From the NCBI GenBank assembly GCA_964393205.1, contig CAYMSV010000002.1, positions 96,843 through 160,842 on the forward strand: 64,000 nt of DNA, in the 5' to 3' direction. Under the pieces are notes generated by a model. That model made no database searches. It was not told where the DNA came from and saw nothing but the letters and a program-made list of their open reading frames with translations. Position numbers and translations under genes: made by a program. This DNA comes from an uncultured Pseudomonadales bacterium (GTDB lineage: Bacteria; Patescibacteriota; Microgenomatia; UBA1400; PJMF01). Shown one piece after another: positions 6,747 through 59,141 of the stretch (position 1 is its first letter; each line of letters begins with the position of its first letter).

Positions 6747-6833
6747 ATCAAGACTAAGACTTATAAAATGTCCTGTTTTTACTCTATATTAATTAAATTT
6801 AGATCACAAGGCGAAGAAAATCCAAACAAAAAA

Positions 6834-14271: not shown

Positions 14272-14400
14272 CCTTTGTTCTGGCCTCGACCTATCTTCGC
14301 AAGGGAAAATCCCTAACTATTGTCAGCGCTGAGACGTTTCAAGACTCTGTTCGGGATGGGAAGAGTTGGGACCATCTCGCTCCAGAGACCAGAACAAAAG
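14272..14400 (-). rRNA. rrf: 5S ribosomal RNA
   Basis: The reverse complement reads ...GGTCCCAACTCTTCCCATCCCGAACAGAGTC...GAAACGTCTCAGCGCTGACAATAGTTAGGG..., with terminal helix I pairing (CCTTTTGTTCTGG/CCAGAACAAAGGG). It lies just downstream of the 23S on the same strand. Ends are approximate. Confidence 0.8.
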
Positions 14401-14484
14401 GTTTTTTTCTAAAGAACAATTGTTAATTATATAACATAAATGCTCTTAAACATGTGAAGAAGTCAACTGCCGTCCAATAACAGT

Positions 14485-17425
<2,941 letters not shown>

Positions 17426-17608
17426 AATCATTGAAGTCTTCATTTTATTTCTCGACTATTATTGAATAACAGTTGATAAAATTCTTCACATGTTAAAGAG
17501 CACTTATTACTAGCCACCAATTAGTGACTACTTATTAGCCTCTAGAAGTTCCGCTAGGAAATCATCCAAAGCCTAATAAGTAAACACCAATGTTAATTCA
17601 ACTATAAG

Positions 17609-17685
17609 TGGTGGACCCTAAGGGGCTCGAACCCTTGACCTCCACATTGCAAATGTGGCGCTCTAGCCAACTGAGCTAAGGGCCC
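17609..17685 (-). tRNA. tRNA-Ala (anticodon UGC), CCA encoded
   Basis: The reverse complement is GGGCCCTTAGCTCAGTTGGCTAGAGCGCCACATTTGCAATGTGGAGGTCAAGGGTTCGAGCCCCTTAGGGTCCACCA. It shows a cloverleaf with anticodon loop TTTGCAA (TGC), the G3:U70 Ala identity pair (GGG...CCC stem with G-T) and a T-loop GGTTCGAGCC. Confidence 0.9.
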
Positions 17686-40578: not shown

Positions 40579-41725
40579 TGTTTTATTATTGTATCAGCCG
40601 TGGCAATGGTCTACTGATTATCAAAACCAGACAGTAAAAACTTTAGAAAAACTTAATAACAAAGTCATTATTTATTATGGACATAAAGAAACAGTCTTGT
40701 GGAAAAAAGACGGATTACAATCACTTTTTATTAAGAAAAATAAAAAATTAAACTTCTTCATTCCAATTCATTTTTTGCCTTTACGCCGACTAACTTTTGT
40801 AAAAAAAGCTAATCAATTCATAAACCTTCAAAGATTTAATCATTATTGCAAAAACTTATTTAGAAAATACGAGAAAAAAATAACTCCTTCTCAAGCTATT
40901 TTCTGGTTTTTTGAACCAAACTCCTTGATTCAAAACCTTCATTTATTAGATATCAAACACAAACATTTAATTTTTGACTGTGTAGATTACTTTTCAATAA
41001 AAGAATTAAAGTTTGCACTGCAAAAAAGCACTAGTATTTTTTGTATTTCACAAACCATGCAGGAGTTACTGAGTAAACTAATCAAATCTAAAAAAATAAT
41101 AAATTTGGTACCTCAAGGATTTGATCTAAACACTTTTAAAAAATATAAATTGTTCATCAATACTACTTCTTCTAAAGATAAAAGATATAAAATTGGTTTT
41201 ATCGGAGGAATTGATAATCGACTCAAATATTCACTGTTAATCAATCTAGTCAAAAGCAACCCTCAGTGGCAGTTTCTTTTTTATGGACCTCAGCAAAAAC
41301 TAAGCAAAAAAAACAAAAAACTACTAAACAAACTTCAAGCTTTCTCCAATACCGACTGGGGAAATGTGACAAAAAAAGAATTACCTAGAATTATTCATAG
41401 TTTCGATGTCGGTATTATTCCCTATGAGATCAGACAAAAGAAAAATTACTACTGTTATCCAATGAAAATTTTTGAATATTTTTATCTAGGAAAACCCGTG
41501 GTGAGCACTCCTATAGCAGAACTGCAGCATAAAAGGTTTAGCAATTTTGTTAGAATAGCTAAAGACAGTCATCAATTCGAAAATTCAATTAAAAAATTGT
41601 TATCTAAAAGCTGGTCAATTTCCTTAAAAAAACAACAAAGACAAATGGCCATAATTAATTCTTGGCAAAAAAAAATTAACACAATAAATGATCAACTAAA
41701 ACTGTTCGTAAAACAAAAAAAATGA
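40559..41725 (+). CDS. Glycosyltransferase (GT-B, GT1/GT4-like C-terminal domain), putative
   Basis: 388 aa. The C-terminal half (IGFIGGIDNRL...DVGIIPY...KIFEYFYLGKPVVSTP) resembles a GT-B donor-binding domain. Confidence 0.45.
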   Translation: MLRDKLIVLLLYQPWQWSTDYQNQTVKTLEKLNNKVIIYYGHKETVLWKKDGLQSLFIKKNKKLNFFIPIHFLPLRRLTFVKKANQFINLQRFNHYCKNLFRKYEKKITPSQAIFWFFEPNSLIQNLHLLDIKHKHLIFDCVDYFSIKELKFALQKSTSIFCISQTMQELLSKLIKSKKIINLVPQGFDLNTFKKYKLFINTTSSKDKRYKIGFIGGIDNRLKYSLLINLVKSNPQWQFLFYGPQQKLSKKNKKLLNKLQAFSNTDWGNVTKKELPRIIHSFDVGIIPYEIRQKKNYYCYPMKIFEYFYLGKPVVSTPIAELQHKRFSNFVRIAKDSHQFENSIKKLLSKSWSISLKKQQRQMAIINSWQKKINTINDQLKLFVKQKK

Positions 41726-44622
41726 AAAATAAAAAACAAATCATTCTCTTAACTATCTTAGTTTTTTTGTTTATCTCATTATTATTTTTTCAAAGAAATA
41801 ATAGAAAAACTTTTTGGCAAATTCGTCCTGCTAAAGAAATTGTTTCCGGTGGAGAGTTTGATGGAAAACATATTCTTATTCCCATCGATAGAAATAAAAT
41901 TCAAGCCATTGATCATAAATCTGGAAAAGTCAGCTGGCAATTTGAAGCTGATACTTCCATTAACTCTGGGTTAACAATTATAAATAACGGATTGTTCTTT
42001 ATAACTGAAAATCAAAATCTATTTTCTCTTAATCTTAAAAGCGGAAAATTAATTTGGAAAAAGACCCTAGATTTACAAAGAAACAACCTTCAAGAATACA
42101 AAAAACAACTACTCTTGAGTCAAGCAGGTGGAAGAATTACTTTAATGAATACCAAGGGTGAAATCCTATGGGAAAATTTTTTAGAAATTAATAATACCAA
42201 GCCCTCAGACCAAAATCTAAATAATCTAGAAAAACAAATATCTGACTGGGAAATGTATTTTTCTTATGAAAACGAGCTTATATATGTCACCTTTGAAAAT
42301 TCTATATATAAACTAAGCGGTGAAACAGGGGAATTAATCTGGAGTCAACATTTTGAAAAAGAAATTTTGAGCAAACCTCAACAAATATATGGCGACCTGA
42401 CTTTCATTGATGGAGAAGGTAGCTTGACTAAAGTTGACACAAAGGATGGAAAAATAGTCTGGCAAACACAAGAAAATTTTGAACAAATTACTGAACTTTT
42501 AGAAATAAATAATTTAACGGCAAGTAAGAGACAATTACTAAATGTCGTTGATCAATTTATAAAAACTTTAATTAAAAAAAATCTGTGGATTTCCAATCTG
42601 ATTATGGATAGTCTAGGAGCTTGGAAAGATAACTTAATACAATCTAATTTACTTGCTCTTAATCAAAAAGGCATTTTAAGACGCCTCAGTCACAGTGGTG
42701 AAGAAAAAATTTGGGAGCTTGATACTGAATTAGATAAACCTCGAATTTTAGAAACAAAAAATAAATATATTTTGATTGCTGATCAAAAAATAATTTTAGC
42801 TATCAATCTAGATGGCTATATTGTTTGGCAACAAGAAATTCCCCACATCAAACAACTTTCCTTAGTAACAAAACCTGTTTATAAGTGGTTACCAATCTCA
42901 AACAAACCACAAATTCTAGTAAATAGTTTTGAAAAAAATATTTATGCTCTAGATCATGAATCGGGAAAAATACTTTGGCAATTCAATAGTAATGTACCAA
43001 TAAGCTCAAACACAATGGAGCTACCCAACACTTTATTAGTTATTACTAATAATGGAATTATTTATCAAATTGACAAATTCAAGGGCACTATATCTGAAAA
43101 AATCAAAATTAAACATCAAGTGAAAAATACTAATATAAAGGATAAAGAGATCTTCACCATTGATTTTTTTAGTAAAAAGAATTACTTCACAAGCCCTTTT
43201 TACCAAGTAAAGATAAGTTGTAGTTTTGAGTCTCCAGAAGGGAAAAAATATCCAATAAATGGTTTTTATTATAACTACAATCATTGGCAAGTACGTTTTA
43301 ACCCTCAAGAAATTGGAGATTGGCAGTGGGATTGCATCTTTCAAACCCCAGAATCAGAAAGGTTCTTTTCTGGAAAGTTTTATAGTGAAAAGAAAAAAGA
43401 TCAATTCATTAAAATCGCCGAAAACTCAAATGGTCAATTTTTAACTTTAGACGGAGAGAAAATATTCTTCCCTTTAGGATTAAATCAAACTATTATAGAT
43501 TTTAACCAAAACGGTATCTTTTTTGATGATTTCGCTATTGGAGAAGATCATAAAAATAGAAGGATTCAACTAGATGAATATTTAGATGTATATTTTAAAG
43601 AAAGTGGCTTTAATACTTTTCGTTGGAATCCTGGTAATTATCAATTTTCAGTAGCTTCAATGATCCATTATCCAGAAAACGATTACTCTCTATACAGGGC
43701 TGGATTAGGAGATCACTTACTTGAGAATCTTTATCAAAGAGACATTCAGGTTTATTTAACCCTGTTTGCCTGGGGCTTGCCATTTGGCACCACTGTCAAA
43801 AACTTACAAGAAGAATGGGCCATAAACCATTATTTAGAATACATGGTAGCTCGTTACGGAGCCTATACTTCCGCCTGGGAATTAACAAATGAAGGAGTAT
43901 TGGAAGATGCTACCGCTCACAAATTTTTAAGTAAGTTAAAATCTTTAGATCAAAAAAAATTAGTAAGCATCAGTTTTGAAAAACCCAATTTAAAATCAGT
44001 TGACATCATCTCTCCCCACTGGTATTCAACTAGTACTCCAGAAATTGCAGATACGGAAATTTTAGAAGTAATAAATAAATTTGAAAAAAAAGCTAAACCC
44101 ATTATTTTTGGAGAAATTGGTAATGGAAAGAGTAGTTGGGATAAAAACTCAGCCTTAATCATGCGAGTTAGAGCTTGGGTATCTCTATTTAATGGAGCAG
44201 GTTTAATTTTTTGGAATCAAAGTAATTCAAAAAGTTTTTATAATGAAGCTTTTGAAAATGCTAATCAATATATAGGTGAAGAAGAGCGCACTTACATGAA
44301 AGTAATCAGTGATTTTAGCAAAGAACTAGACGTTACTTTAAAACCAGCAAGTTTTTATAAAAAGATAGGTGGCGATGGTGTTAGAACTTATGGCTTAGCC
44401 TCTGAAAAAGAGTTACTAGTTTATGCCTATCACCACTACAATCAATATACCAATAATGCCACTTTTACAATCAATGTTGATCTCTCAAAACCAGCATCTT
44501 TAGAGTGGATTAATCCCCAAAACGGTGAAGTAATAAGCAGTTATCCTCTCCAAACAGGATCAAACACTATTATTTCTCCTGAATTTAGAGAAGATTTAGT
44601 TCTAAAAATTTCTCTCAGTTAA
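41722..44622 (+). CDS. Membrane-anchored PQQ-like beta-propeller protein fused to a GH-A clan (GH5/DUF4038-like) glycoside hydrolase domain
   Basis: 966 aa with an N-terminal TM. Repeated GK[LIV][IVS]W[QKS] blades (GKVSWQF, GKLIWKK, GELIWSQ, GKIVWQT, GKILWQF) indicate a propeller. The C-terminal TIM-barrel-like region has an NE acid/base (WELTNEG) and a nucleophile-like IIFGEIG. Confidence 0.5.
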   Translation: MKNKKQIILLTILVFLFISLLFFQRNNRKTFWQIRPAKEIVSGGEFDGKHILIPIDRNKIQAIDHKSGKVSWQFEADTSINSGLTIINNGLFFITENQNLFSLNLKSGKLIWKKTLDLQRNNLQEYKKQLLLSQAGGRITLMNTKGEILWENFLEINNTKPSDQNLNNLEKQISDWEMYFSYENELIYVTFENSIYKLSGETGELIWSQHFEKEILSKPQQIYGDLTFIDGEGSLTKVDTKDGKIVWQTQENFEQITELLEINNLTASKRQLLNVVDQFIKTLIKKNLWISNLIMDSLGAWKDNLIQSNLLALNQKGILRRLSHSGEEKIWELDTELDKPRILETKNKYILIADQKIILAINLDGYIVWQQEIPHIKQLSLVTKPVYKWLPISNKPQILVNSFEKNIYALDHESGKILWQFNSNVPISSNTMELPNTLLVITNNGIIYQIDKFKGTISEKIKIKHQVKNTNIKDKEIFTIDFFSKKNYFTSPFYQVKISCSFESPEGKKYPINGFYYNYNHWQVRFNPQEIGDWQWDCIFQTPESERFFSGKFYSEKKKDQFIKIAENSNGQFLTLDGEKIFFPLGLNQTIIDFNQNGIFFDDFAIGEDHKNRRIQLDEYLDVYFKESGFNTFRWNPGNYQFSVASMIHYPENDYSLYRAGLGDHLLENLYQRDIQVYLTLFAWGLPFGTTVKNLQEEWAINHYLEYMVARYGAYTSAWELTNEGVLEDATAHKFLSKLKSLDQKKLVSISFEKPNLKSVDIISPHWYSTSTPEIADTEILEVINKFEKKAKPIIFGEIGNGKSSWDKNSALIMRVRAWVSLFNGAGLIFWNQSNSKSFYNEAFENANQYIGEEERTYMKVISDFSKELDVTLKPASFYKKIGGDGVRTYGLASEKELLVYAYHHYNQYTNNATFTINVDLSKPASLEWINPQNGEVISSYPLQTGSNTIISPEFREDLVLKISLS

Positions 44623-47194: not shown

Positions 47195-48817
47195 CTAGTT
47201 CAAAAGTTTTTCTAACAAAAGAACTTGGAAATCATGATTATTAAATGATAAATAAAAGTTATCCTTAATTATCAGTTTAGAAAAGCTATCTCCTTCAAAC
47301 TCACTAATTCCTTGTGTAAATTTATCAAAACATTGATTGCCAGTCTTATAATCATTATAAACAAGAAAATAGAACCGATTGCCAGCATTATAATTATCCA
47401 AGGACTGATATTTAAAGTTGATTGAATCTCTAATCATAAGTTTTTTATTTATCAAATGATCTATGGGTTGTGCTAAAAATCTAGTTTTTCCTAAATAATC
47501 ATTTTCACAAATATCTTCACCTAAATAATCTCTATTAAAATGGTAAAAAATCATAACATCACTACGATTTAATCTATATTCATCTATTTTTTGAATAATA
47601 GCTTCACTAACGATTTCATTAAAAGCATAAGAACTAGAATCCTTCATACCTGGTTTAGGCAAAACAAGAGAAATATTGTGAAGAAAAAATAATATTAAAA
47701 AAGCAATAATCGGTAGAATTAAAATGATTTTATAAATATTTTTTTTACAATTCAAAATTTGTTTCATTTTTATTGATAAAAAAATAAAAAAAACAATAAC
47801 AATTAAGTCTATCCTATGTGGTGCATAAGGAGCATCTATATTAATTAGAAAATAAGGGGTTAATAAAATCCACAACAAAAGCCAAAAATTATCAAAAACT
47901 TTGTTAGATAAATCTGATTCATGCTTAAAAAACTTATTGATTAATAATAAAAAAATTATGAATATTATAAATAATACTTTCCAAAACACATGTTGATTGT
48001 TAAAAAGCAAACTAAAAAAAACTTCAAAAATGTTCCAATAATGTGTCGTTACCCTACTTAGATTAATTGGCAATAGATTTTCACGATGTTTTAAAATGGC
48101 TAAAATAGATGGCCAATTATTGAGAATTTCAAAAATAAGCTGTGATGAATATGTAATAATAAAAAAAACTAACATTGAATAAACTAATAAAAAGTAACTT
48201 CGCAGAGACGTGTTGTTTAATTTTTTAAAAAATAGATAGGAGTTTAAACAAATAACGGGTAAAATAAAAAATGAAGAAGGATAAATAGTTAAGGCAATGA
48301 AAAAAGAAAATTGGCTTAAAAAAAGAAAAAGTAATTTACTAGATTTTAGAGAAATCAAACCTAAAAAAATTGATAAAGAACTAAAAAAAATGCTTGGATG
48401 AGGATGCCAAACAGTTCTGCTTAAGAAAACATGATAATGCCAAAAAGTAAAAATTCCTAAAAATACAAGACTAATTAGCTTATCTTTATTATTTAACAAA
48501 TATATAGATAAAAATAAAAATAAAATCGAAAATAAACCCATTAAGGCATAAAAAACAGATACTAAAAAAAATTCGCCATGAGCAAGAAAATAAAAAAAAG
48601 AAATTAAATACAAATAGGTTGGTGGTATAAATAAACCACTAATACCAATTGCTGGATTAACTAAGGGAAACTTCTTTTCTAAGTTGATCGTTCTAGCAAC
48701 TTCCAACTCATAACCAACATCAACAGTCATGTCAGAAAATTCCAGATTGGTAAGCCTTAAAAATCCAGCTAATAAAAATAATATTAAGAAGATATTTAGA
48801 AAAATAGCCTTTTTCAT
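47195..48817 (-). CDS. GT-C fold glycosyltransferase (PMT/ArnT family-like), paralog A
   Basis: 540 aa. Its N-terminus aligns closely with that of 51870-53576 (FLRLTNLEFSDMTVDVGYELEVAR versus YLRFYNLQANTLYGDSGYELEKAR). The first-loop acidic motif after TM1 and the 11-13 TM architecture are as in PMT_2/ArnT. Confidence 0.5.
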   Translation of the reverse strand: MKKAIFLNIFLILFLLAGFLRLTNLEFSDMTVDVGYELEVARTINLEKKFPLVNPAIGISGLFIPPTYLYLISFFYFLAHGEFFLVSVFYALMGLFSILFLFLSIYLLNNKDKLISLVFLGIFTFWHYHVFLSRTVWHPHPSIFFSSLSIFLGLISLKSSKLLFLFLSQFSFFIALTIYPSSFFILPVICLNSYLFFKKLNNTSLRSYFLLVYSMLVFFIITYSSQLIFEILNNWPSILAILKHRENLLPINLSRVTTHYWNIFEVFFSLLFNNQHVFWKVLFIIFIIFLLLINKFFKHESDLSNKVFDNFWLLLWILLTPYFLINIDAPYAPHRIDLIVIVFFIFLSIKMKQILNCKKNIYKIILILPIIAFLILFFLHNISLVLPKPGMKDSSSYAFNEIVSEAIIQKIDEYRLNRSDVMIFYHFNRDYLGEDICENDYLGKTRFLAQPIDHLINKKLMIRDSINFKYQSLDNYNAGNRFYFLVYNDYKTGNQCFDKFTQGISEFEGDSFSKLIIKDNFYLSFNNHDFQVLLLEKLLN

Positions 48818-50173: not shown

Positions 50174-50905
50174 TCATTTTGATATTTCAATCAATCTGTT
50201 GCAATATTTTTTTAAGTGATCAACAAAATGGCTGACCAATATGAGGGTAACATCGTTATTAAACATCTTTTTCATTACTTGCCTAGACTTTTCTTGAAAA
50301 TCCCTGTCTCCCATACTCATTACCTCATCCAACAAGAGAATGTTAGGTTTTGCATGAATAGCTATACTAAAACCCAACCTCAACTTCATTCCATTAGAAT
50401 AAGTATATAAAGGAGCAGTAACAAAATCTCCAATTCCAGCAAAATCAATTATTTGATTAAATTTGTCTCTAATCTCTTCTCTAGACATACCAATAACTAA
50501 ACCGTTTAAAAAAATATTTTCTTGTCCAGTTAAATCTGGATGAAAACCGGCCGCTAAATCTATTAAAGAAATAATCCTCCCTTTTGTCTGTACTTTTCCA
50601 GAAGTTGGCGAACTAATTCTAGCAATAATTTTTAGTAAAGTTGTTTTTCCAGCACCATTTGCTCCGAAAAGACCAATTTTTTCTCCCTTGTGAATTTTTA
50701 AATTAACATTTTCTAAGGCCCAATACTCCTCTTTTTTTTCAAAACGTAAAATTCGATTAACGTCCTCAATGAGAGTTGGTTTATCGTGGGTAATAATATA
50801 TTTTTTACTAACATCAGTTAAATTGATTACTACCTCACCAGATTTTTTTCTATTACGCAAAGTTTTTTCTTTAAAAACTGTCATATTTCTCCAAATTATA
50901 ACCAA
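50174..50905 (-). CDS. ABC transporter ATP-binding protein, Wzt/TagH/KpsT type (polysaccharide export)
   Basis: Walker A GANGAGKTT, signature-like YSNGMKLRLGFSIAIH and Walker B ILLLDEV. No C-terminal substrate-binding extension. It overlaps the upstream permease gene. Confidence 0.8.
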   Translation of the reverse strand: MVIIWRNMTVFKEKTLRNRKKSGEVVINLTDVSKKYIITHDKPTLIEDVNRILRFEKKEEYWALENVNLKIHKGEKIGLFGANGAGKTTLLKIIARISSPTSGKVQTKGRIISLIDLAAGFHPDLTGQENIFLNGLVIGMSREEIRDKFNQIIDFAGIGDFVTAPLYTYSNGMKLRLGFSIAIHAKPNILLLDEVMSMGDRDFQEKSRQVMKKMFNNDVTLILVSHFVDHLKKYCNRLIEISK

Positions 50906-51702
50906 TCATCAAAATTGACATTTTCTTTTTTGAAAACACGATAACCAAAGTAAAAAATGCCAATAATTAAAATAACTGCTACCCAAATAAAGTTTATTAA
51001 AGTAATAGGCAATCCCATCAAAGCAAAGTGAAATAATTCAATAATAGTTGTCATAGGATTTAAATAAAAAATTGGCCACAAAAATTCTGGCAATAAGTTT
51101 AGTGCATAGATCACTGGAGTGGCATAGAACCACAACATAACTGCCAACTGAATTATAAAATTGATATCACGAAACCTGACGTTTAAAGAAGAAGTAAAAA
51201 GCGATAAACCAATTGTAAAAAACAATAACAAAATTAACGCTGGAAAAAGCCATAACATACGTGAGACATAAAAAACCAGTTGTATTAAGCCATAATTTTC
51301 AAAAAATAATTTGTCTCCAATTAAAGCGCCTATTAATAATAATAAAGCTACTAAAAAATGAAAGAAATTGGAAAAAATAATTGATAAAACAATACTTTCT
51401 CTAGGAAATTTGGCCTTTTTAATTAAATTTCTCTCATAAAAAAAAGCTGGAGTAGATTTGGTCAAACTTTGAGAAAAAAAGTTCCAAGGCAAAAGTCCTG
51501 CAAATAAATATAGAAAATAGTTATCAACAGAAACCGGTACAAAAAACTGAAAAACAAAACCCATAACCACCATTTGTAAAATTGGATTTAAAATTATCCA
51601 CAAAAAACCAAAAGTAGCTCGTTTATAGCGAGCTTTAATCTCTTTTTCAGTCATGGCTACTAAAAAATCAAACCAGTGACGTCGCTTATTCTTCAAGAAC
51701 AT
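50896..51702 (-). CDS. ABC-2 type transporter permease (Wzm/TagG-like)
   Basis: 268 aa with six TM. The N-terminus (EIKARYKRATFGFLWIILNP) matches the ABC-2 permease N-terminal amphipathic helix motif. Confidence 0.7.
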   Translation of the reverse strand: MFLKNKRRHWFDFLVAMTEKEIKARYKRATFGFLWIILNPILQMVVMGFVFQFFVPVSVDNYFLYLFAGLLPWNFFSQSLTKSTPAFFYERNLIKKAKFPRESIVLSIIFSNFFHFLVALLLLIGALIGDKLFFENYGLIQLVFYVSRMLWLFPALILLLFFTIGLSLFTSSLNVRFRDINFIIQLAVMLWFYATPVIYALNLLPEFLWPIFYLNPMTTIIELFHFALMGLPITLINFIWVAVILIIGIFYFGYRVFKKENVNFDDWL

Positions 51703-51869: not shown

Positions 51870-53576
51870 TTATTTTAACTTGCTTTGTTTTTTTATTAAA
51901 AATATAACCTCTGGCGAATAATTTTCATTTTGATCTACAAAATAATAAGAGCTAAGAGTTAAAAATAAGTGCCTATTGTGCACATCTATATTTTTTAAGT
52001 TAAATAAAACTTCTTGTAAACATGCTTCTGATTCTTGAATAATTAATTCTGTTTCATAATTTCCCGAATCACAAATCAAAAAATAATAATCAATATTATT
52101 CAAAAAATGAGTGTGATCTGAAAGAAAACGGATAAATAGATTATAATTTTCTACAGACCGTTCTTCATTAAAGCTCGATTTATTTATAAAAAAATCGTTA
52201 GATTGAGCTATATGTCTTAATAATCTTAAATAATTTAAGGAATTATTGGCGTCATAAGTAAATGTATCTTCTCCAAAGTTTGCCTTGTTTAAAACCATTG
52301 TTCTGCTTCTTTCTAAATTTTTTGTGACAATCTCATCAGCAATTAAGTTAGAAACTTTCTCATAAGAATAAATGGTTCCCGAAGACCACTTGTCAGATTT
52401 AAAAATAAGAAAAGAGTTTCGAATATTTATATAAAAATAAATAGATAAAAAAATAATAACAGGTAACAGTAAACAAATTTTTAGAAAGCTGTTTGCTTTG
52501 AAACTTAAAATAAGCTCTAAACCTATGGCCAATAAAATAAAAAACAAGAAAAACAGAACATCAAGTCTGTGAAAGTCTTGAGCTCCTGCTATATTCAATA
52601 GATAAACAATGGCTAAAATCCACAAATATAAAAAGGGATTAATATAAATTTTAGTTAAAAAATTAAGTCTTTTTTTATAAAAAACTAACAAACTGAACAA
52701 AAAAAACAAAAATAAAAAAAATAATAAATGAAGTTGTGGGGAAACATCCCAAGAAAAGAAAACTTGAGATAAAATTTTAGAAATGTTGAAAAAAGTTTCA
52801 ACTATTATTTCAGAATTAATGCTTACATTATCTCGAAAAATTCCTAATACAGAAGAAAGCCGTGAGAAAAAACCAAAATTTATCTCGTTGACCAATAAGG
52901 GAAGATAAACTAATAGTATAAATACTGAGTTACTCAATAAAATATAAATTAAACTTTTTATCTTGGAATAAGCTTCAATTCTGTTAAAAAAAACATATGA
53001 ATAATATAAAACTATTGGTAAAACAAAGATCGGAGAAGGATAAATTGATAAAGATATAAAAAATAAAAATTGTCCTAAGAATAAGTATGGTTTTTTCTTC
53101 ATTCTTAAAGATAAAGTTAGAAACAAAAACGATAGTGATAAAAAAAACAATACAGGGTGAGGATGCCAAATCATTCTGCTAACATGAATAAAATAGTGAC
53201 TAATTGAAAAAATTGCAATAAATAAAACAGCAATGCCTTTATTTTTGCTTAAAATATAAACTAAAAAAGAAAAAATAATAACAGTCAAGAAACCCATTAA
53301 AGCAAATAACGCAGAAATAATTTTTATTTCGCCTCCAGCAATAAAATATAAGAATGCTATTAGGTAAAGGTAGGTCGGTGGAATCACAACATCTACCAAC
53401 TCTAAAGTTGGACCCAAAAGGGGTAACTTTTTAAATTGATTAATTTGCCTGGCTTTCTCTAATTCATATCCTGAATCACCATACAAAGTATTGGCTTGCA
53501 GATTATAAAATCTTAAATATGCAGCTAATATTATAAAAAATAAGACAAGTAAAAATATAAATTTATTTCTTTTCAT
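51870..53576 (-). CDS. GT-C fold glycosyltransferase (PMT/ArnT family-like), paralog B
   Basis: 568 aa; N-terminal ~150 aa are highly similar to 47195-48817. Confidence 0.5.
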   Translation of the reverse strand: MKRNKFIFLLVLFFIILAAYLRFYNLQANTLYGDSGYELEKARQINQFKKLPLLGPTLELVDVVIPPTYLYLIAFLYFIAGGEIKIISALFALMGFLTVIIFSFLVYILSKNKGIAVLFIAIFSISHYFIHVSRMIWHPHPVLFFLSLSFLFLTLSLRMKKKPYLFLGQFLFFISLSIYPSPIFVLPIVLYYSYVFFNRIEAYSKIKSLIYILLSNSVFILLVYLPLLVNEINFGFFSRLSSVLGIFRDNVSINSEIIVETFFNISKILSQVFFSWDVSPQLHLLFFLFLFFLFSLLVFYKKRLNFLTKIYINPFLYLWILAIVYLLNIAGAQDFHRLDVLFFLFFILLAIGLELILSFKANSFLKICLLLPVIIFLSIYFYINIRNSFLIFKSDKWSSGTIYSYEKVSNLIADEIVTKNLERSRTMVLNKANFGEDTFTYDANNSLNYLRLLRHIAQSNDFFINKSSFNEERSVENYNLFIRFLSDHTHFLNNIDYYFLICDSGNYETELIIQESEACLQEVLFNLKNIDVHNRHLFLTLSSYYFVDQNENYSPEVIFLIKKQSKLK

Positions 53577-53738: not shown

Positions 53739-54986
53739 ATGTTTGGCGTTAAAACTAAAATTATTAATCGATTGAAGAAAAATTTTTATAATATTAATTT
53801 TAATAGTTTAACGTCTTCTGTAAAAAGAAAAACTTTAGCCTTGCTAGTAAAATCAGAACTAGAGAGAGAACTTCAATACGTAGATATTCAACAACCCATA
53901 GCTAAAAAAACCAATCATTTTGCTTCTTATATACTAAAAAAAACCACTGACTATATGCCAAATAATTTGGGCAATTGGTCAATTAAAAAACCAGGCACTC
54001 TGAGTGGAAAACTCGAACTAACCATCATTGAAACTCTAAAAAAACAATACAATTGTAACAAAGAGATTGTTGGTCATTTTGGATCAGGGACAACAGAGGG
54101 CAATATTTATGCTGCCTGGATTGGAAGAAATTACTTATCCAAAAAACTAAAAAGCAAAAATTTTGATAAGCTGATCCTAATCAAAAGTAGTTTAAGCCAC
54201 TATTCTCTTGATAAAGCAAGCGATATTATAGGCATTAAAAACTTTGAAGTTAGTATTGATCAAACTAAGTTCAATCTTGATTTAGCAGAATTTGAGCTCA
54301 TCATTAATAAACTTTATAAGCGTGGCTACAGAGGTTTCTTAGTTCCCCTCACTCTAGGCTATACCGTGACAGGCACCGATGATGATTATCTTGCAATTAT
54401 TAAAATTGTAGAAAAATTTAAGAAAGAAAAAAAAGATTGTGAATTCTTCATATGGCTTGATGCTGCCTTCACTGGAATAAGTAAAATATTTGATCAAAAA
54501 AAATTTGAACCATTTAAAAACAAACAAATACAATTATTAAGTACAGATTTACATAAATTTTTAGCCGTTCCTTATCCGGCTAGCGTTTTGCTTTACAGAA
54601 AAAATTTGCTAAAACATGTTGCCAAGCCAATTCCCTACATTGATCAACTAGATAGTACTTTACTGGGTTCTAGATCTGGAAACATGGTTATAGCTAGTTG
54701 GTTTACCTTAATTAACTTAAATCATCAAAAAATGCGCAAGCTCATTAACGAGAGCCTGAAGGAAAAAGAAAATTACTTAGACAAAATTGTCAAAGAGAAA
54801 ATCAAGGTTACCATCATTAATAATAAAAATAGTTTACAAGCTTGTTTAATTTCTCACAATAAAAAAGCTGACGAAATATTATCTAAAAAATATGGTCTCT
54901 CTAGCATCGAATATCCTCTACTAATTAAAAATAAGACACAAGTTACCAAGATTTATAAATTATATTTTTTTACAACACTGAGATAA
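53739..54986 (+). CDS. PLP-dependent group II decarboxylase-like protein
   Basis: 415 aa. HFGSGTTEGNIYAAWIGRN resembles the Gly-rich cofactor loop. STDLHKFLAVPYP is the S-x-x-HK PLP-lysine motif of MfnA/GAD/SPL-type enzymes. WLDAAFTG is also present. Confidence 0.5.
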   Translation: MFGVKTKIINRLKKNFYNINFNSLTSSVKRKTLALLVKSELERELQYVDIQQPIAKKTNHFASYILKKTTDYMPNNLGNWSIKKPGTLSGKLELTIIETLKKQYNCNKEIVGHFGSGTTEGNIYAAWIGRNYLSKKLKSKNFDKLILIKSSLSHYSLDKASDIIGIKNFEVSIDQTKFNLDLAEFELIINKLYKRGYRGFLVPLTLGYTVTGTDDDYLAIIKIVEKFKKEKKDCEFFIWLDAAFTGISKIFDQKKFEPFKNKQIQLLSTDLHKFLAVPYPASVLLYRKNLLKHVAKPIPYIDQLDSTLLGSRSGNMVIASWFTLINLNHQKMRKLINESLKEKENYLDKIVKEKIKVTIINNKNSLQACLISHNKKADEILSKKYGLSSIEYPLLIKNKTQVTKIYKLYFFTTLR

Positions 54987-54988: not shown

Positions 54989-55834
54989 ATGACACAATCA
55001 TCAATTAAAAAAATCTATCATCAATCCAAATTTAATCTGGGTTTCAAAAGAAACTTAGAAAAATATTTCGGTTTTGAAACTTTTTTGAAAAACCAATACA
55101 ACAAAAGTAAGTTCTTTTTTGATAATAAAATTATTTACCCCGTATTTGCAAAAATTAGTCATTATTTATATCAACAAGTTATTGATTATTACGGAGCTGA
55201 TTATAGGTGGAACGATCAAAAAAGCCAAAATATAGATAAAAAAACCAATAATTATGGCTATGGTCTCTTTCATTACTCAATGATTAGAAATCAAAAACCA
55301 AAGCGTGTTTTATGTATCGGTTCAATGTACGGGTATATTCCCTACATGATGGCTAAAGCCTGCCAAGATAATAATTTTGGTAGCATTGATTTTGTTGACG
55401 CTAATTATAATCTTAAAGATGATGAGAATAATCAGAATCATTATTTTGGAGAAGGTTTCTGGAATAAAGACCGCGTAGCAAATCATTTTAATTATTTATT
55501 GAATCAAAAATTCATAAACACCTACGTCATGCGCACTGATCAATTTGCTCATAAATATTCAAGTAGAAAATACGATTATGTTTGCTTAGACGGGGATCAT
55601 TCATACAAAGGAGTAAAAACAGATTTTAAGCTATTTTGGCCAAAAATTAAGAAGAATGGCTTTCTTTGTTTACATGATATTGATCTTGTAGTTGACCCTA
55701 AAAATCCAGATTTTATGAATTTAGAGTTCAACTATAAAAAATTTTGGGAAGAATTAGTAGCAAAAAAGAGTTTTCAATATAAATTTGAAATCTCTAATCA
55801 ATATTCAGGCCTAGGTTTTATTCAAAAAAAATAA
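54989..55834 (+). CDS. Class I SAM-dependent methyltransferase (Methyltransf_24 / CmcI-TylF-like)
   Basis: 281 aa with VLCIGSMYGY and DYVCLDGDHSYKGVKTDFKLFWPKIKKNGFLCLHDI. These are typical of the cephalosporin hydroxylase / macrocin O-MTase-like family. Confidence 0.55.
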   Translation: MTQSSIKKIYHQSKFNLGFKRNLEKYFGFETFLKNQYNKSKFFFDNKIIYPVFAKISHYLYQQVIDYYGADYRWNDQKSQNIDKKTNNYGYGLFHYSMIRNQKPKRVLCIGSMYGYIPYMMAKACQDNNFGSIDFVDANYNLKDDENNQNHYFGEGFWNKDRVANHFNYLLNQKFINTYVMRTDQFAHKYSSRKYDYVCLDGDHSYKGVKTDFKLFWPKIKKNGFLCLHDIDLVVDPKNPDFMNLEFNYKKFWEELVAKKSFQYKFEISNQYSGLGFIQKK

Positions 55835-55839: not shown

Positions 55840-56802
55840 TTATACTTTTATCAATGCTTTTTTCAATCTTTGACGAATTGTATACCACAAATTAAACATA
55901 TAGATTGTCTTATCCTCAACACCAGCCTCTTTAAAAGAGTTTCTTCTATCAACACAGGTGGCACAAGCATCACCACATTGAAATAGCTTATGTTGATAAC
56001 AAGACCAAGTTTTTTCAAAAGGAACCTTTAAATGTTTACCTAGCTTAATTGTTTCTTTTTTATCTAACATAAGCCCCATTTCCCTTTCCAAAAAAACTGA
56101 TGAAAAATTCCAATCATATTCAGCTTTAGCGCCACAAATGGACAATAAGGTTGTTCTAAGCGAAGTAAAGGATTGGCTAGGAATCACAAAACCGTCAGAA
56201 AAATTTATACCTGTATATATATCTTTAATGTTAATGCCCTTGGTATATTTTAAATAATCAGCATAAAACACTGCATAAAAAGACATTAAATAAGGTGAGA
56301 TTCCATTAGCTCTAGTAATTACAACGTTAGATTGATTATTAACCATCTTATTGTTTTGGTTGAAATTATTTAGTAAATCATTGGCAGTGAGAAGTTTTTC
56401 ATTACTTAAGTCTAAAACTTCTTTTGGAGTAGGATTAACATGTAAATGAAAAGGTTTTATGTAATTCTCTGGATATTTTGCTGAAAAATGTTTTTCTAAA
56501 TTTTTAACGGCTCTCAACTCTCTCTTAGCTCTTTTCTTTAATCCTCTATCAATAATTAAAGGATAAACTTGATAATTATATATATCCAATAAAGCAGCCC
56601 AAGCTACGGTCGAATCTATCCCTCCAGAAAGCAATAAAATAACTTTTGTTTTAGCTTTTGGTTTGCGAAATACATAACCCCTTTTTTTGATAAAAAAATT
56701 ATCAACAGCGTCAATTAAATCCAAATCTTCTACTTTTCTTTCTTTAAGCAAATTATCAAACCTTGATTTTGAAATTTTAGGCAAATATTTCTTTTTTCTC
56801 AT
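55840..56802 (-). CDS. QueC-like (ExsB family) PP-loop ATPase, extended
   Basis: 320 aa. The PP-loop is VILLLSGGIDSTVAWAAL. The C-terminal segment WSCYQHKLFQCGDACATCVDRRNSFKEAGVEDKT matches the QueC Zn-binding tail (CY...CG.C..C..R..GF..AG..D). There is an extra ~50 aa N-terminal basic extension. Confidence 0.55.
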   Translation of the reverse strand: MRKKKYLPKISKSRFDNLLKERKVEDLDLIDAVDNFFIKKRGYVFRKPKAKTKVILLLSGGIDSTVAWAALLDIYNYQVYPLIIDRGLKKRAKRELRAVKNLEKHFSAKYPENYIKPFHLHVNPTPKEVLDLSNEKLLTANDLLNNFNQNNKMVNNQSNVVITRANGISPYLMSFYAVFYADYLKYTKGINIKDIYTGINFSDGFVIPSQSFTSLRTTLLSICGAKAEYDWNFSSVFLEREMGLMLDKKETIKLGKHLKVPFEKTWSCYQHKLFQCGDACATCVDRRNSFKEAGVEDKTIYMFNLWYTIRQRLKKALIKV

Positions 56803-56911
56803 CGGCTTTCATCTTAATCTAAAGACTCCTGCTTTTCAAGAAAAAAGAAACATCATAACGATCGTTGACAACTCCTAATAATTGAGTCTAGAATAATAAA
56901 GAGATAAAAAT

Positions 56912-56989
56912 ATGAAAAAATATACAAAACCAAGCCTGAAAAAAAGCAAAATCAAGATAAACTTTGCTTTTACTATTGTCAAAACATAA
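56912..56989 (+). CDS. Small ORF (25 aa), candidate precursor/leader peptide
   Basis: ATG at 56912 with AAAGAG 8 nt upstream. It translates to MKKYTKPSLKKSKIKINFAFTIVKT* and ends 22 nt before the PqqD-like gene on the same strand. It is not in the ORF track. Confidence 0.25.
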   Translation: MKKYTKPSLKKSKIKINFAFTIVKT

Positions 56990-57011: not shown

Positions 57012-57320
57012 ATGTTTAATTCTGAAAAACTGTTTTCTAGTTTTGTTTTTTGTCGCTCAAGTGTTAATTTTAGCAAAAAAAAAGATACTTTCTTAGTTTT
57101 ATCTCAAGACCGCAAACACATTCTGGAACTTAAAGATGTATCTTTTAGTATTTGGCAAAATTTAGAAAAACCAATCTCTTTTTCTGCATTGATAAAGAAA
57201 CTCCAAAAGGAGTATGACGTGGCAGAAGAAGTTTTAGAAAAAGATTTAAAATCTTGGTTAAAAGAAGCTTTAAAAGAAAAGATTATTAAAAAAGTAAAAT
57301 TAAACAACCTTAATCATTAA
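57012..57320 (+). CDS. PqqD-like protein (RiPP recognition element family)
   Basis: 102 aa. The stretch FLVLSQDRKHILELKDVSFSIWQNLEKPISFSALIKKLQKEYDVAEEVLEKDLKSWLKEALKEKII follows the PqqD pattern (l.l.....g..y.LN.tg..iW.ll.g..t..ei...l...Y.v......Dv..fl..L...gli). Confidence 0.55.
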   Translation: MFNSEKLFSSFVFCRSSVNFSKKKDTFLVLSQDRKHILELKDVSFSIWQNLEKPISFSALIKKLQKEYDVAEEVLEKDLKSWLKEALKEKIIKKVKLNNLNH

Positions 57321-58343
57321 GCCTAAAAAATTTTTACGATCGACATAGCCTGGGTCTGAATACAAATTACTGTCGCCTTTAGTGATAATTTTGCCTTTTT
57401 CTAGACCATGAAAACGATGCACCACTACGTTTTTCAGCTCCTGATGCCAAAAAGCAATAATGTCTCCCTTTTTTAAATTTTTAAAGTTAATTCTCTTTAT
57501 CAAAACTTCATCACCTTTTAAGACCAAGGGTTCCATACTTCCACTGCCAGCAGTTGCTACAAACTTTTCACCTATTGGTAAATTTTTTAAAAAATTAAAC
57601 ACCAACCCAGCCTTTTTATTATCAGGCATCTTCTCTAGCACCAAAGAGTTGCAATATTTTTTATATTCTAGCAACACTTCCTGACCACCATCCATAAACA
57701 ACTGACCCTTCTCTAACCAAATAAAACGATTACATAGTCTACGAAGTAGAGGTAATAGATGGCTACATAAAACAATTGTTTTGCCTTGCTTAAAAATCTC
57801 TTCTACCTTGTCAAAAGCTTTTTTTTGAAAATCATTGTCTCCTACCACAATGCCCTCATCAATAATAAAAATATCTGGATCACAGTGTACAGCTATAGAA
57901 AAAGCTAAACGTAAAATCATTCCCGATGAATAAGTATATAGAGGTCGGTCTATAAATTGAGCAATACCAGAAAATTCAATAATTGTACTTTCTAATTTTT
58001 TAATTTTATTCAGTGAAGTACCCAAAACTACAGCATTTAAATAAATATTTTCCCTACCAGAGGATTGAGGATAAAAACCAGCAGTTAAATCAATCAGAGA
58101 AATAATTTTCCCAAAATGCTTAACCCGACCCTCACTAGCTTGAGCTATACCAGTAATTAACTTTAGTAAAGTTGTTTTTCCAGCTCCATTATTACCTAAA
58201 ACAGCTACTTTTTCTCCTTTATATATTTTTAAGTCAATGTTTTTTAAAGCATAAAAAGTTTTTTCTTTGTCAGAGTCAATTGAAGGATAAATCTTATTAA
58301 CCTTGTCCAGTTCTATTGCTAATCTTTGCTTTTGTTTAGACAT
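57300..58343 (-). CDS. Wzt-type ABC transporter ATP-binding protein fused to a C-terminal Sec11/SipW-type (S26) signal-peptidase-like domain
   Basis: 347 aa. The N-terminal ~230 aa are an ABC ATPase (GNNGAGKTT, YSSGMILRLAFSIAVH, IFIIDEG). The C-terminal ~100 aa read GSGSMEPLVLKGDEVLIKR...GDIIAFW...VVHRFHG...ITKGDSNLYSD. This reproduces SPase I boxes B (SGSMEP), C, D (VHR, the ER/archaeal His type) and E (GDN..D). Confidence 0.7.
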   Translation of the reverse strand: MSKQKQRLAIELDKVNKIYPSIDSDKEKTFYALKNIDLKIYKGEKVAVLGNNGAGKTTLLKLITGIAQASEGRVKHFGKIISLIDLTAGFYPQSSGRENIYLNAVVLGTSLNKIKKLESTIIEFSGIAQFIDRPLYTYSSGMILRLAFSIAVHCDPDIFIIDEGIVVGDNDFQKKAFDKVEEIFKQGKTIVLCSHLLPLLRRLCNRFIWLEKGQLFMDGGQEVLLEYKKYCNSLVLEKMPDNKKAGLVFNFLKNLPIGEKFVATAGSGSMEPLVLKGDEVLIKRINFKNLKKGDIIAFWHQELKNVVVHRFHGLEKGKIITKGDSNLYSDPGYVDRKNFLGLMIKVV

Positions 58344-58346: not shown

Positions 58347-59141
58347 CTATAACCAATCATCTACTTTTTTACTTTGTTTTCTAAAAAAATCTAGAGAAAA
58401 AACTAAAAATAATATAGAAAATAAGCCATTTATCAAATATTCCTGAAAACTCATGCCTAAATCTAAAAATATCGAGCGAAACATTTCAATGAACTGAAAT
58501 AAAGGGTTTAAAGACAAGATTCCAGCTAAATTGTTAGGAAGTAAGTCGCGAGCATAAAAAATTGGTACCATAAAAAAAGATAGTTGAATAATAAAATCTA
58601 TTACCACCATAAACTTTTTAACTCTTGCAACTAAAATTGAAAAAAACAGAGCTACAGCTAGAGAAAAAAAGGCTAAAAAAATTGATAAAACACTAAATAA
58701 AAAAAAGGATTTAATAAAATAAGCAAAAGCCACTCCAAAATTAACAGAAGAAAAACTTACAAAAAGCAATATTAATAAACTAGTAATAAAATAAGGAATA
58801 AAACTTACTATCAAAGTTTTTATCAATAAAAGTTCTCTAGGAAAAACCGCTTTTTTAATAAGATTTTGTTCATCAACTAAAATTATTGCAGAACTCTTAA
58901 TAAATTTGGCAAAAAAACTCCAGGAGATTAATCCTGATAATATAAATAAAAAATAATTATTATCTTTAGAAACAAGCATAAAAGATAAAATGAAAGAAAG
59001 AATAAATGCTTTAATAATAGGAGTGCTAATTTCCCATACTAAGCTCAAAAAACTCCTTTTACTACTCACGTTCAAATCTTTTTTTGTCATCAGAAGCAAA
59101 AAATCTAAGTATGGAAATTTTTCTTTATATTCTTGAGTCAT
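58347..59141 (-). CDS. ABC-2 type transporter permease (Wzm-like), partner of the Wzt-peptidase fusion
   Basis: 264 aa with six TM helices. It lies 3 nt upstream of the ATPase gene on the same strand. Confidence 0.7.
   Translation of the reverse strand: MTQEYKEKFPYLDFLLLMTKKDLNVSSKRSFLSLVWEISTPIIKAFILSFILSFMLVSKDNNYFLFILSGLISWSFFAKFIKSSAIILVDEQNLIKKAVFPRELLLIKTLIVSFIPYFITSLLILLFVSFSSVNFGVAFAYFIKSFFLFSVLSIFLAFFSLAVALFFSILVARVKKFMVVIDFIIQLSFFMVPIFYARDLLPNNLAGILSLNPLFQFIEMFRSIFLDLGMSFQEYLINGLFSILFLVFSLDFFRKQSKKVDDWL

Follow-up and report, generated by a model that had tools for sequence, protein, structure and literature searches.

The window, the stretch of 64,000 nucleotides that was analysed here, carries on its reverse strand an open reading frame (57300..58343) encoding a protein of 347 aa, in which an ABC transporter ATPase is continuous with a peptidase-like domain. 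Residues 1-235 (57639..58343, reverse strand) are a nucleotide-binding domain (NBD) of the Wzt/TagH type, as judged from its motifs, from the structure 6amx and from NCBIfam. The Walker A (GNNGAGKT), signature (YSSGM), Walker B (IFIIDE) and H-loop (SH) motifs are intact and their columns are invariant in an alignment of homologous fusions. In the PDB the NBD matches the Wzt structure 6amx (E 7e-56) and TarH/TagH (E 1e-44 to 1e-48), and in NCBIfam it matches TagH with 175 bits (cut-off 320) and Wzt/RfbE with 163 bits (cut-off 400), reaching neither equivalog cut-off. A domain search of the fusion gave no match to the Wzt_C carbohydrate-binding domain (PF14524), the extension being S26-like instead, nor to a C39 peptidase domain. 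PF14524 is present in another of the proteins searched, P0120.

The NBD is followed by a linker (residues 236-258; 57570..57638, reverse strand), defined from the AlphaFold model and a profile alignment, which contains a conserved short helix, AGLVFNFLKNL, modelled at residues 245-253 and with the consensus LLFxFLKxLP in relatives. The helix is a feature of the anchor-less class only and occupies the place of the transmembrane (TM) anchor of classical SipW/Sec11 proteins, with anchor-less relatives aligning to the profile from position ~8 and TM-anchored ones only from position ~28. No hydrophobic segment or membrane anchor is found in the linker or S26 domain of the fusion, and the standalone members of the anchor-less class are likewise without one.

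The remaining ~90 residues (259-347; 57303..57569, reverse strand) are an S26 peptidase core of the Sec11/SipW type. TIGR02228 is matched with 66.9 bits by the domain alone and 63.7 bits by the full-length protein, against a curated cut-off of 51.85. The putative catalytic residues S269 (codon at 57537..57539), H309 (57417..57419), D324 (57372..57374) and D330 (57354..57356), all encoded on the reverse strand, align with S56, H96, D116 and D122 of SEC11A, and the spacing between the two Asp residues is the same in both proteins. The original prediction had recognised signal peptidase boxes in this domain, with a His in the position of the bacterial Lys, and had described it as lacking its own TM anchor and as attached to a cytoplasmic NBD; all of this is confirmed, and the S24/S26 beta-barrel fold that it pointed to is present when the predicted structure is submitted to fold comparison.

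The fusion is not peculiar to this contig. A protein identical over all 347 aa is recorded in 34 blocks of the collection, with the listed loci coming from separate JGI and ENA samples, and the same continuous architecture is found in ~30 clusters (90 % identity clustering) at 45-66 % identity, as well as in 16 more divergent representatives. Elsewhere the two parts are separate genes of the same cassette, with a peptidase gene of 104-147 aa lying directly 3' of an unfused 244-aa ATPase (L016/L017 and L032) or overlapping the PqqD gene (L033). The occurrence of fused and separate peptidases in different genomes is Rosetta-stone evidence for a partnership of ATPase and peptidase. A word-indexed search for homologues of the isolated domain had returned only 3 matches, short proteins on short contigs which are probably gene fragments; relatives were then gathered by an exhaustive profile search (~1,700 at E <= 1e-10), and scans of metagenomes and genomes with one degenerate pattern gave 8 and 9 loci. 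Members of the anchor-less branch exceed the signal peptidase I cut-off, and fragments of them are called 'signal peptidase I' by JGI. Further anchor-less relatives are fused to a radical-SAM enzyme, an NTP_transf_5 protein, a GNAT and a spermine-synthase-like protein, partners that look like a peptide-tailoring setting; a convergent PqqD gene adjoins the NTP_transf_5 fusion, and the contigs with the radical-SAM and GNAT fusions are too short to give gene context.

It is from its neighbours that the fusion takes its meaning, as it belongs to a peptide-handling cassette that was absent from the original prediction. Upstream of the ATPase, here and in every locus with enough flank, is the gene for a Wzm-like ABC-2 permease of 264 aa (58347..59141, reverse strand; Pfam ABC2_membrane, E 7.5e-12), which ends 3 nt before the ATPase-peptidase gene starts; the permease has ~6-7 hydrophobic segments and matches the NCBIfam Wzm/RfbD and KpsM-like models below cut-off. 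On the other side, in convergent orientation and with an overlap of 21 nt at the 3' end of the fusion gene, lies a gene for a PqqD-family protein of 102 aa (57012..57320, forward strand; Pfam PqqD, 43 bits, cut-off 23.4), a peptide chaperone of the RiPP-recognition-element (RRE) type whose top NCBIfam match is lasso_PqqD_Bac (37, cut-off 80). A PqqD gene adjoins the peptidase in all loci.

Beyond PqqD is a QueC-like PP-loop ATPase of 320 aa (55840..56802, reverse strand; Pfam QueC, E 4e-19), with an SGGIDS loop and a C-terminal Cys cluster, which is far from canonical QueC (TIGR00364, 49.8 bits, cut-off 150) and for which a sequence search found no related solved structure. Next come a class I SAM-dependent methyltransferase of the Methyltransf_24 family (281 aa; 54989..55834, forward strand; Pfam E 1.3e-14) and a group II PLP-dependent amino-acid decarboxylase resembling histidine and tyrosine decarboxylases (415 aa; 53739..54986, forward strand; Pfam Pyridoxal_deC), which matches the NCBIfam histidine decarboxylase with 130 bits, below cut-off. 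The QueC-like gene is in every cassette and Methyltransf_24 in every one with enough flank, in some of them as two copies, whereas the decarboxylase is an accessory member of about half of the cassettes, one of which (L028) has an Orn/DAP/Arg-type decarboxylase instead. Wherever the flanks are long enough, the genes for permease, ATPase (with or without its peptidase), PqqD, QueC-like enzyme and Methyltransf_24 occur together, in genomes that range from Microgenomates-type CPR to a complete TM6 chromosome, and at three loci (L012, L013 and L033) some of these genes lie in a same-strand operon. A PADLOC search found no defence system.

The cassette holds a further gene that had not been called, encoding a peptide of 25 aa (MKKYTKPSLKKSKIKINFAFTIVKT; 56912..56989, forward strand), 22 nt upstream of PqqD and on the same strand, and this peptide is the only candidate found for the substrate or precursor. 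The pair is preceded by a promoter-like site, TTGACA-N18-TAGAAT (56865..56894, forward strand), which with 11 of 12 consensus matches is the best of the region, although such sites are no more numerous in this AT-rich DNA than chance would give. Homologous ORFs, 19 of them distinct and 21-29 aa long, occur always within the cassette, one in every cassette; none has an NCBIfam model. Tyr and the Pro three residues after it are invariant (Y-x-x-P), the usual form being Y-x-K-P-x-L. The peptide gene exists and is coding: the ORFs show an excess at the third codon position (214 against 101 and 103), and the strict motif occurs once in the six frames of the window and never in 100 shuffles. PqqD-type RREs are known to bind the motif YxxPxL. 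In lasso-peptide leaders YxxPxL is the conserved motif at positions -17 to -12 (PMC10368454).

The original prediction had left two functions for the S26 domain, a catalytic protease on the cis side or a repurposed binding barrel. Judging from the sequences the former, acting on a peptide, is favoured, because the Ser/His/Asp/Asp set is conserved and because PqqD and the peptide gene are always alongside, whilst a non-catalytic binding barrel is disfavoured, as a homologue such as SipA would not need catalytic residues. The cassette has the generic layout of a RiPP cluster, with a short precursor gene, an RRE, tailoring enzymes, a protease and an exporter that are co-located and co-conserved. 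On balance we lean towards a cassette for the production, processing and export of a small peptide of ribosomal origin, or of a metabolite that stems from such a peptide. The fusion itself would probably, though with a good deal of reserve, be the ATPase of an ABC-2 exporter made of two components, with a soluble Sec11/SipW-type serine peptidase joined to that ATPase.

In such a pathway the PqqD chaperone may bind the 21-29-aa peptide through Y-x-K-P-x-L, and the QueC-like PP-loop enzyme could convert an ATP-activated carboxylate to an amide (or a nitrile). A QueC-family enzyme, Cap9, forms an amide bond on a protein amine (bioRxiv 10.1101/2025.04.06.647259). The carboxylate might come from the C-terminal region of the peptide, or from a small molecule that is joined to a peptide amine, with the PLP decarboxylase possibly supplying the amine partner at some loci, and Methyltransf_24 would then methylate the product. 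The S26 domain, at the cytoplasmic face of the exporter, would cut the peptide, and the Wzm-like channel would export the product. The likeliest cut may be near the C-terminus, after the small residues that peak in the peptide alignment at Tyr+15 and Tyr+17, where an acidic residue follows at Tyr+18. Type I signal peptidases follow a -3/-1 rule, to which these two peaks are a fit, with the small-residue pattern present in about half of the peptides (10 of 19 at each position). The peptides have 17-21 residues after the Tyr. A cut at this site would release only 1-4 residues, and either fragment could be the product; this and the limited reach of the small-residue pattern weigh against the proposal.

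Counting against a peptide pathway are the NBD and permease, which are closest to glycan and teichoic-acid exporters, the glycan genes around many of the loci, the match of PqqD to its lasso-specific model below cut-off, and a top structural match for the S26 core, SipA, that is non-catalytic. The first two of these are what an exporter of a cell-surface glycopolymer or teichoic acid would explain. The peptidase-like domain would then replace the Wzt carbohydrate-binding domain, and its task would be to recognise or trim a cap, built by the neighbouring enzymes, that carries a peptide or an amine and sits on a lipid-linked polymer. The nearest relatives of the NBD are indeed Wzt/TagH and those of the permease Wzm/KpsM, and glycan genes (Wzy_C, GT2, Bac_transf, GLF, RGP) flank the cassette in many loci. 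Some relatives of Methyltransf_24 are moreover O-methyltransferases that act on sugars, and there are known systems in which the Wzt C-domain recognises a methyl cap. However, a glycopolymer leaves PqqD and a ribosomal peptide with a leader motif without a role, unless it is the peptide that serves as the cap. Moreover, glycan genes are so common all over these small genomes that adjacency to them is weak evidence, and the composition of the cassette is kept whilst the glycan genes around it vary from locus to locus. A second, unfused Wzm/Wzt-like pair also lies within the window, and could serve ordinary glycan export. We consider the glycopolymer explanation unlikely, and the O-antigen terms in which the transporter was originally framed are probably wrong.

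The non-catalytic match raises the question of whether the S26 domain is silent, a SipA-like peptide-binding or chaperone module which holds the PqqD-bound peptide at the transporter uncut. SipA, a non-catalytic signal-peptidase homologue, is indeed the best structural match of the core. Against this, the Ser, the His and both Asp hardly vary, even at low identity, whether the domain is fused or stands alone. In 30 close fusions the set is invariant, with D330 at 90 % or more, it is kept in 16 of 16 divergent fusions, and of 92 other anchor-less relatives 88-92 retain the catalytic residues, a strictness equal to that of 40 TM-anchored SipW-type proteins, although among search matches some of this conservation is to be expected from the profile itself, which favours those columns. 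The conservation of Ser and His that the original prediction had proposed to check is borne out. Small S26-type cores can also be active, since the NiSOD maturation protease, with a profile of only 90 positions (TIGR02754), cleaves the NiSOD preprotein (PMC8346466); the S26 core of the fusion matches that profile weakly, with 24.8 bits, below cut-off. It is hence rather improbable that the domain is silent.

A switch of the LexA/UmuD kind, in which autoproteolysis within the linker regulates the transporter, is very improbable. The S24 dyad is Ser-Lys, whereas here a His within VHR is the general base and the GDxxxxxD box follows the Sec11/SipW pattern. Where the domain is a protein of its own there is moreover no partner from which it could cut itself free, and the alignment of fusions has no conserved Ala-Gly-type site in the linker. 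An artefact of assembly or a frameshift that joined two genes, for which the adjacent separate genes of some genomes might speak, can be set aside as next to impossible, with the identical protein in independent assemblies and the same architecture across so many clusters.

For the peptide cassette no description was found in the searchable literature, and a 2026 survey of the QueC family makes no mention of a peptide, PqqD or ABC context (PMC13329287). It may tentatively be proposed that the cassette represents a ribosomal-peptide pathway of a class not yet described, widespread among the CPR/Patescibacteria and also found in TM6/Dependentiae, in which a PqqD-presented Y-x-K-P-x-L peptide of ~25 aa is tailored by a QueC-family enzyme and cut by a cytoplasmic Sec11-type peptidase at the exporter. 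If so, this would be the first Sec11/SipW-type peptidase to work on the cis side on a substrate that is not a signal peptide, the first case other than the C39 PCATs of a peptidase fused to an ABC exporter, and the first QueC-family enzyme to take part in the chemistry of peptide natural products. The Sec11/SipW family would gain a soluble branch in the cytoplasm, and the reach of the QueC scaffold would go beyond nucleobase chemistry and phage defence to include the tailoring of peptides. Specialised metabolism is usually said to be scarce in the CPR/Patescibacteria, whose genomes are tiny; a conserved peptide cassette of seven genes in them would be an exception to this, unexpected but open to testing. 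The components are small and the 25-mer substrate can be made by synthesis, which opens the central claims to direct tests in vitro.

Amongst known systems, the Sec11/SipW/archaeal type I signal peptidases (MEROPS S26B) share with the fusion the order of boxes, the Ser/His/Asp/Asp set, the S24/S26 fold and the TIGR02228 score. The fusion core differs in having neither an N- nor a C-terminal TM anchor and in lacking the C-terminal third of the Sec11 domain. It is cytoplasmic, on the NBD, whereas the anchor of Sec11/SipW puts the active site on the trans side, and its likely substrate is the cassette peptide rather than a Sec signal peptide. The Wzt/TagH ATPases (A. aeolicus Wzt, 6amx/7k2t) have in common with it the NBD sequence, a Wzm-like permease partner and a C-terminal extension, but the Wzt extension is a carbohydrate-binding sandwich, not a peptidase, and the genes linked to the fusion are peptide-handling, not glycan-capping. 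A small S26 protease at work in the cytoplasm has a precedent in SodX. This NiSOD maturation protease cuts a preprotein, not a Sec signal peptide (PMC8346466), although it differs in substrate and genomic context and carries no transporter fusion. The QueC-like enzyme shares its PP-loop and Cys-cluster scaffold with Cap9 of type IV CBASS and with QatC, but matches QatC only distantly (29 bits against 280) and has no TGT-like, QatABD or CBASS partner in the cassette.

The lasso-peptide clusters come close in layout, as all five of their roles (A precursor, B1 PqqD, B2 protease, C lactam synthetase, D ABC exporter) are matched in the cassette. The B2 protease of lasso clusters is however a transglutaminase-like Cys protease and their cyclase is asparagine-synthetase-like, as against the S26 protease and the QueC-like PP-loop enzyme here. 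A lasso peptide was rejected on this ground, the counterparts of B2 and C belonging to other families, and also on length, as the lasso register leaves a core of 1-5 residues instead of at least ~14 with an Asp/Glu at 7-9.

The proposed logic is closest to that of the PCAT/AMS exporters, where a cytoplasmic protease joined to a ribosomal-peptide exporter couples cleavage to export, and we are somewhat inclined to think that the fusion would function in the same way as the C39-type PCATs, as a peptidase-containing ABC exporter built from unrelated parts. The PCAT protease is a C39 Cys protease at the N-terminus of a TMD-NBD half-transporter, whereas the unrelated Ser/His S26 peptidase of the fusion is C-terminal on a separate NBD, the cassette transporter has an ABC-2 (type V) fold, and the cassette peptides have no double-glycine motif and no leader of that kind. 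The likeness to PCATs is one of analogy and not of membership, and the cassette would be a second, independently evolved coupling of peptide cleavage to ABC export.

The gene at 57300..58343 on the minus strand, exactly where the original prediction had placed it, encodes a protein of 347 aa and starts 3 nt past the stop of an ABC-2 permease gene (58347..59141). Residues 1-235 are an ABC nucleotide-binding domain (NBD) of the Wzt/TagH kind, with Wzt of Aquifex aeolicus as its nearest solved structure (6amx, E 7e-56) and TarH and TagH next in rank. The top NCBIfam models are TagH and Wzt/RfbE, both scoring well under their equivalog cut-offs, and the Walker A (GNNGAGKT), signature (YSSGM) and Walker B (IFIIDE) motifs and the H-loop are intact. 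The C-terminal ~90 residues match TIGR02228, the NCBIfam model of archaeal/ER-type signal peptidase I; the isolated domain reaches 66.9 bits over model positions 29-119 of 158 (E 1.8e-18; curated cut-off 51.85), with lower scores for the bacterial SPase I, SipW and NiSOD maturation protease models and borderline matches to Pfam S24 and S26. Human SEC11A and SEC11C come out on top when the domain profile is compared with solved sequences (E ~2e-11), and SGSMEP, VHR and TKGDxN...D match SEC11A column by column (S269=S56, H309=H96, D324=D116, D330=D122). The proposed Wzt-type ATPase with a Sec11/SipW-type domain is thus borne out and, by sequence and fold, the C-terminal domain is an S26B peptidase.

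A gene for a PqqD-family protein (57012..57320, plus strand; Pfam PqqD 43 bits against a cut-off of 23.4) shares 21 nt with the end of the convergent fusion gene; the best NCBIfam match of this protein is the lasso-peptide PqqD chaperone. A terminator-like hairpin of the permease-ATPase operon lies within the PqqD coding region (57200..57213, minus strand), 87 nt beyond the fusion stop. Further genes encode a QueC-like PP-loop enzyme (55840..56802, minus strand), a Methyltransf_24 methyltransferase (54989..55834, plus strand) and a group II PLP decarboxylase (53739..54986, plus strand). In tblastn searches of the comparison loci with the window's cassette proteins, the permease, fusion, PqqD, QueC-like and Methyltransf_24 genes co-occur wherever a locus has sufficient flank (L001, L002, L007, L009, L010, L012 and L013); in L011 the downstream genes are present, the contig starting within the fusion gene so that the permease position is off it. 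In L012 and L013, the latter a TM6 chromosome, PqqD and QueC-like genes directly follow the fusion on the same strand. The decarboxylase is found in about half of the cassettes compared. The cassette is kept around the most divergent fusion (P0035, 45 % identity; locus L028), except that an Orn/DAP/Arg-type PLP decarboxylase (L028 9259..10542) replaces the group II PLP enzyme of the window and other loci; as the two families have unrelated folds this swap would be a non-orthologous displacement. The swap suggests that amino-acid decarboxylation is a real step in those cassettes that have a decarboxylase.

The neighbourhood of the cassette holds further genes. Two paralogues of 568 and 540 aa (51870..53576 and 47195..48817, both minus strand) are 37 % identical and without a Pfam match, and one directly adjoins the cassette. 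PQQ_2 beta-propeller and DUF5060 domains occur together in a 966-aa protein (41722..44622, plus strand) and again in a 996-aa protein that flanks the cassette of L028 (12143..13059). Two distant loci have mevalonate-pathway genes (GHMP kinases, diphosphomevalonate decarboxylase) at a distance of ~5 kb from the cassette (L001 1..2664, L002 453..2353), after which come three unannotated genes that are similar in size. Elsewhere in the window, 5S rRNA, 23S rRNA and one tRNA (14278..17685, minus strand) explain a GC-rich block (0.44 against ~0.30 elsewhere); no 16S rRNA was found in the 64 kb, and CPR genomes commonly have their 16S gene unlinked.

When all small ORFs of the compared loci were clustered, a family of 21-29-aa peptides, uncalled in public annotations, turned out to have a member in every cassette. 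The window gene, encoding MKKYTKPSLKKSKIKINFAFTIVKT, lies at 56912..56989 on the plus strand, 22 nt upstream of PqqD, and is preceded by TTGACA-N18-TAGAAT (11/12 consensus matches). Most loci have the gene immediately before PqqD and on its strand; L002 has it just downstream of PqqD, and in L012, L013, L027 and the second copy of L001 it comes after the QueC-like gene on the opposite strand. Orthologues differ mainly at third codon positions (214 differences against 101 and 103), synonymous changes exceed non-synonymous ones in the closer pairs, and a six-frame scan of the window gives a single hit to the strict motif, against none in 100 shuffles; judged by these sequence measures, the ORF is a real, conserved coding gene.

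An alignment of 19 distinct peptides, anchored on Tyr, has invariant Tyr and Pro(+3), with Lys at +2 in 16 of the 19, a hydrophobic residue at +5 in 17 and a basic one at +6 in 15. Position +10 is hydrophobic in all 19 and alternates with +12 and +14 in what looks like a strand pattern. Small residues are most frequent at +15 and +17 (10/19 each), +18 is acidic in 10/18, the C-terminus follows 17-21 residues beyond Tyr and most peptides have a net charge of +4 to +9. PqqD-type RREs bind a Y-x-x-P-x-L motif, and PqqA has a similar W-x-K-P-x-F. The Y-x-x-P-x-L motif is conserved at -17 to -12 of lasso-peptide leaders (PMC10368454).

Some of the peptides end in Glu. Their genes carry a conserved CTA(A/G)CATTAA element 6-9 nt before the ATG (minus strand: L001 7073..7097, L012 4023..4047, L013 11724..11748, L027 2576..2600, L002 9093..9117), no Shine-Dalgarno site was found at the genes carrying it, and the element may be the -10 box of a leaderless transcript. 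In L001 a second PqqD and QueC-like pair with its own Glu-ending peptide, MKKYIKPRLKKVILKALLARSE, lies upstream of the permease (5755..7072) and a Lys-ending set downstream, thus two peptide types share one exporter.

Each part to be expected in a ribosomal-peptide pathway has its counterpart in the cassette, from the precursor and recognition element, through the ATP-dependent tailoring enzyme and the methyltransferase, to the protease and the exporter. In the chief alternative reading the pump would export a glycopolymer, as the closest relatives of its NBD and permease do, and glycan genes do surround the cassette in many loci. However, those genes vary by locus whilst the cassette is constant, the window holds a second, unfused Wzm/Wzt-like ABC-2 pair (50174..51702, minus strand; a 243-aa ATPase and a 268-aa permease), and a glycan-only reading offers no explanation for PqqD and the peptide. 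In other loci the cassette permeases are nearer to the permease of this second pair (42-48 %) than to the window's cassette permease (33-39 %).

The original prediction had left it between a cis-side protease acting on a peptide or lipid-linked substrate and a repurposed binding module, and had singled out the Ser of SGSMEP and the His of VHR. Both are invariant in an alignment of 30 fusions, as are M270, P272, R310, G323 and D324, with D330 conserved in >=90 %. Among the best 150 representatives of a profile search, Ser, His and both Asp are all present in 16/16 divergent fusions; other anchor-less relatives keep Ser in 90/92, His in 92/92, D324 in 91/92 and D330 in 88/92, and membrane-anchored SipW/Sec11-type proteins keep each in 39-40/40. 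The anchor-less class is therefore as strict as bona fide signal peptidases, although part of this conservation is expected as the search profile rewards those columns. The top structural match of the domain is SipA, a non-catalytic homologue, which would have no need for these residues; their retention points to a domain that is probably catalytic. The protease reading is thus favoured over that of a silent binding module. A LexA-like self-cleaving switch is less likely too, since the domain has a His where such switches have a Lys and is also found as a standalone protein.

That the fusion is an assembly or frameshift artefact joining two genes is excluded: the identical protein is recorded in 34 blocks of the public assembly collection (the three exact-match loci shown are separate JGI and ENA samples), and the same architecture is common to ~30 clusters at 90 % identity (336-357 aa, 45-66 % identical to the window protein) and at least 16 further divergent representatives (50 % level) from the exhaustive profile search. 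The genomes are Microgenomates/Pacebacteria-type CPR MAGs and the complete TM6 (Dependentiae) chromosome CP011212.

The profile search returned 1,679 representatives at E <= 1e-10. Within the top 150, classical members have an N-terminal TM, often a C-terminal one too, and match only from position ~28. A larger group without TM matches from position ~8, taking in a short helix before the core (consensus LLFxFLKxLP, residues 245-253 of the window protein), and contains NBD fusions and many standalone proteins of 100-170 aa. The domain belongs to this distinct anchor-less class. Other members are fused to a radical-SAM enzyme (P0219), an NTP_transf_5 nucleotidyltransferase (P0189, L031), a GNAT acetyltransferase (P0211) or a spermine-synthase-like domain (P0164), the last a separate gene in L033; this variety suggests a wider family of cytoplasmic peptide-processing systems.

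Standalone anchor-less peptidases also occur within the same cassette type, which makes the window protein a fusion of two components of one system. In L016/L017 an unfused 244-aa ATPase has its stop overlapped by the gene of a 147-aa peptidase, after which come PqqD, QueC-like and Methyltransf_24 genes, and in L032 a 104-aa peptidase gene follows the ATPase, with a previously uncalled PqqD-like ORF present. In L018/L019 the peptidase adjoins PqqD, in L031 a convergent PqqD lies beside the NTP_transf_5-fused relative, and L033 has spermine-synthase-like, PqqD, peptidase, QueC-like, Methyltransf_24 and decarboxylase genes on one strand, those of PqqD and peptidase overlapping. At the gene level, the peptidase goes with one of two partners, the ATPase or PqqD.

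In the proposed mechanism the Y-x-K-P-x-L segment of the peptide would be bound by PqqD, and the QueC-like enzyme would, with ATP, activate a carboxylate to give an amide, the amine possibly being the decarboxylase product where that enzyme is present. Cap9, likewise a QueC-like enzyme, offers a precedent, as it attaches a 7-deazaguanine to the N-terminus of a protein (bioRxiv 10.1101/2025.04.06.647259). The methyltransferase would then add a methyl group, the S26 domain would cleave the peptide on the cytoplasmic side of the pump and the product would exit via the Wzm-like channel. Type I signal peptidases follow a -3/-1 rule of small residues, which those at +15 and +17 fit, placing the putative cut between +17 and +18 and releasing 1-4 residues, often a single Glu. 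This site is the weakest step of the model, as the pattern is seen in only about half of the peptides. The product may be a trimmed cationic ~20-mer, perhaps with a modified new C-terminus, or a small molecule made from the C-terminal residues, as PQQ and mycofactocin are.

In public sources the fragments carry the label 'signal peptidase I', the fusions that of a 'polysaccharide/polyol phosphate ABC ATPase'. No account of the cassette, of a link between PqqD and anchor-less Sec11-type peptidases or of a peptide pathway with a QueC-family enzyme was found in the searchable literature, NCBIfam or PADLOC. At the level of sequence, where its unusual parts are confirmed, the cassette is best read as a RiPP-type pathway with a transporter-linked protease. 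The S26 domain should not be filed as a signal peptidase, since it lacks one defining feature, the membrane anchor by which the active site comes to lie on the trans side. In its proposed working the system resembles a peptidase-containing ABC exporter, and role for role it resembles a lasso-peptide cluster, but it is neither, as the protease, PP-loop enzyme, transporter fold and peptide length all differ.
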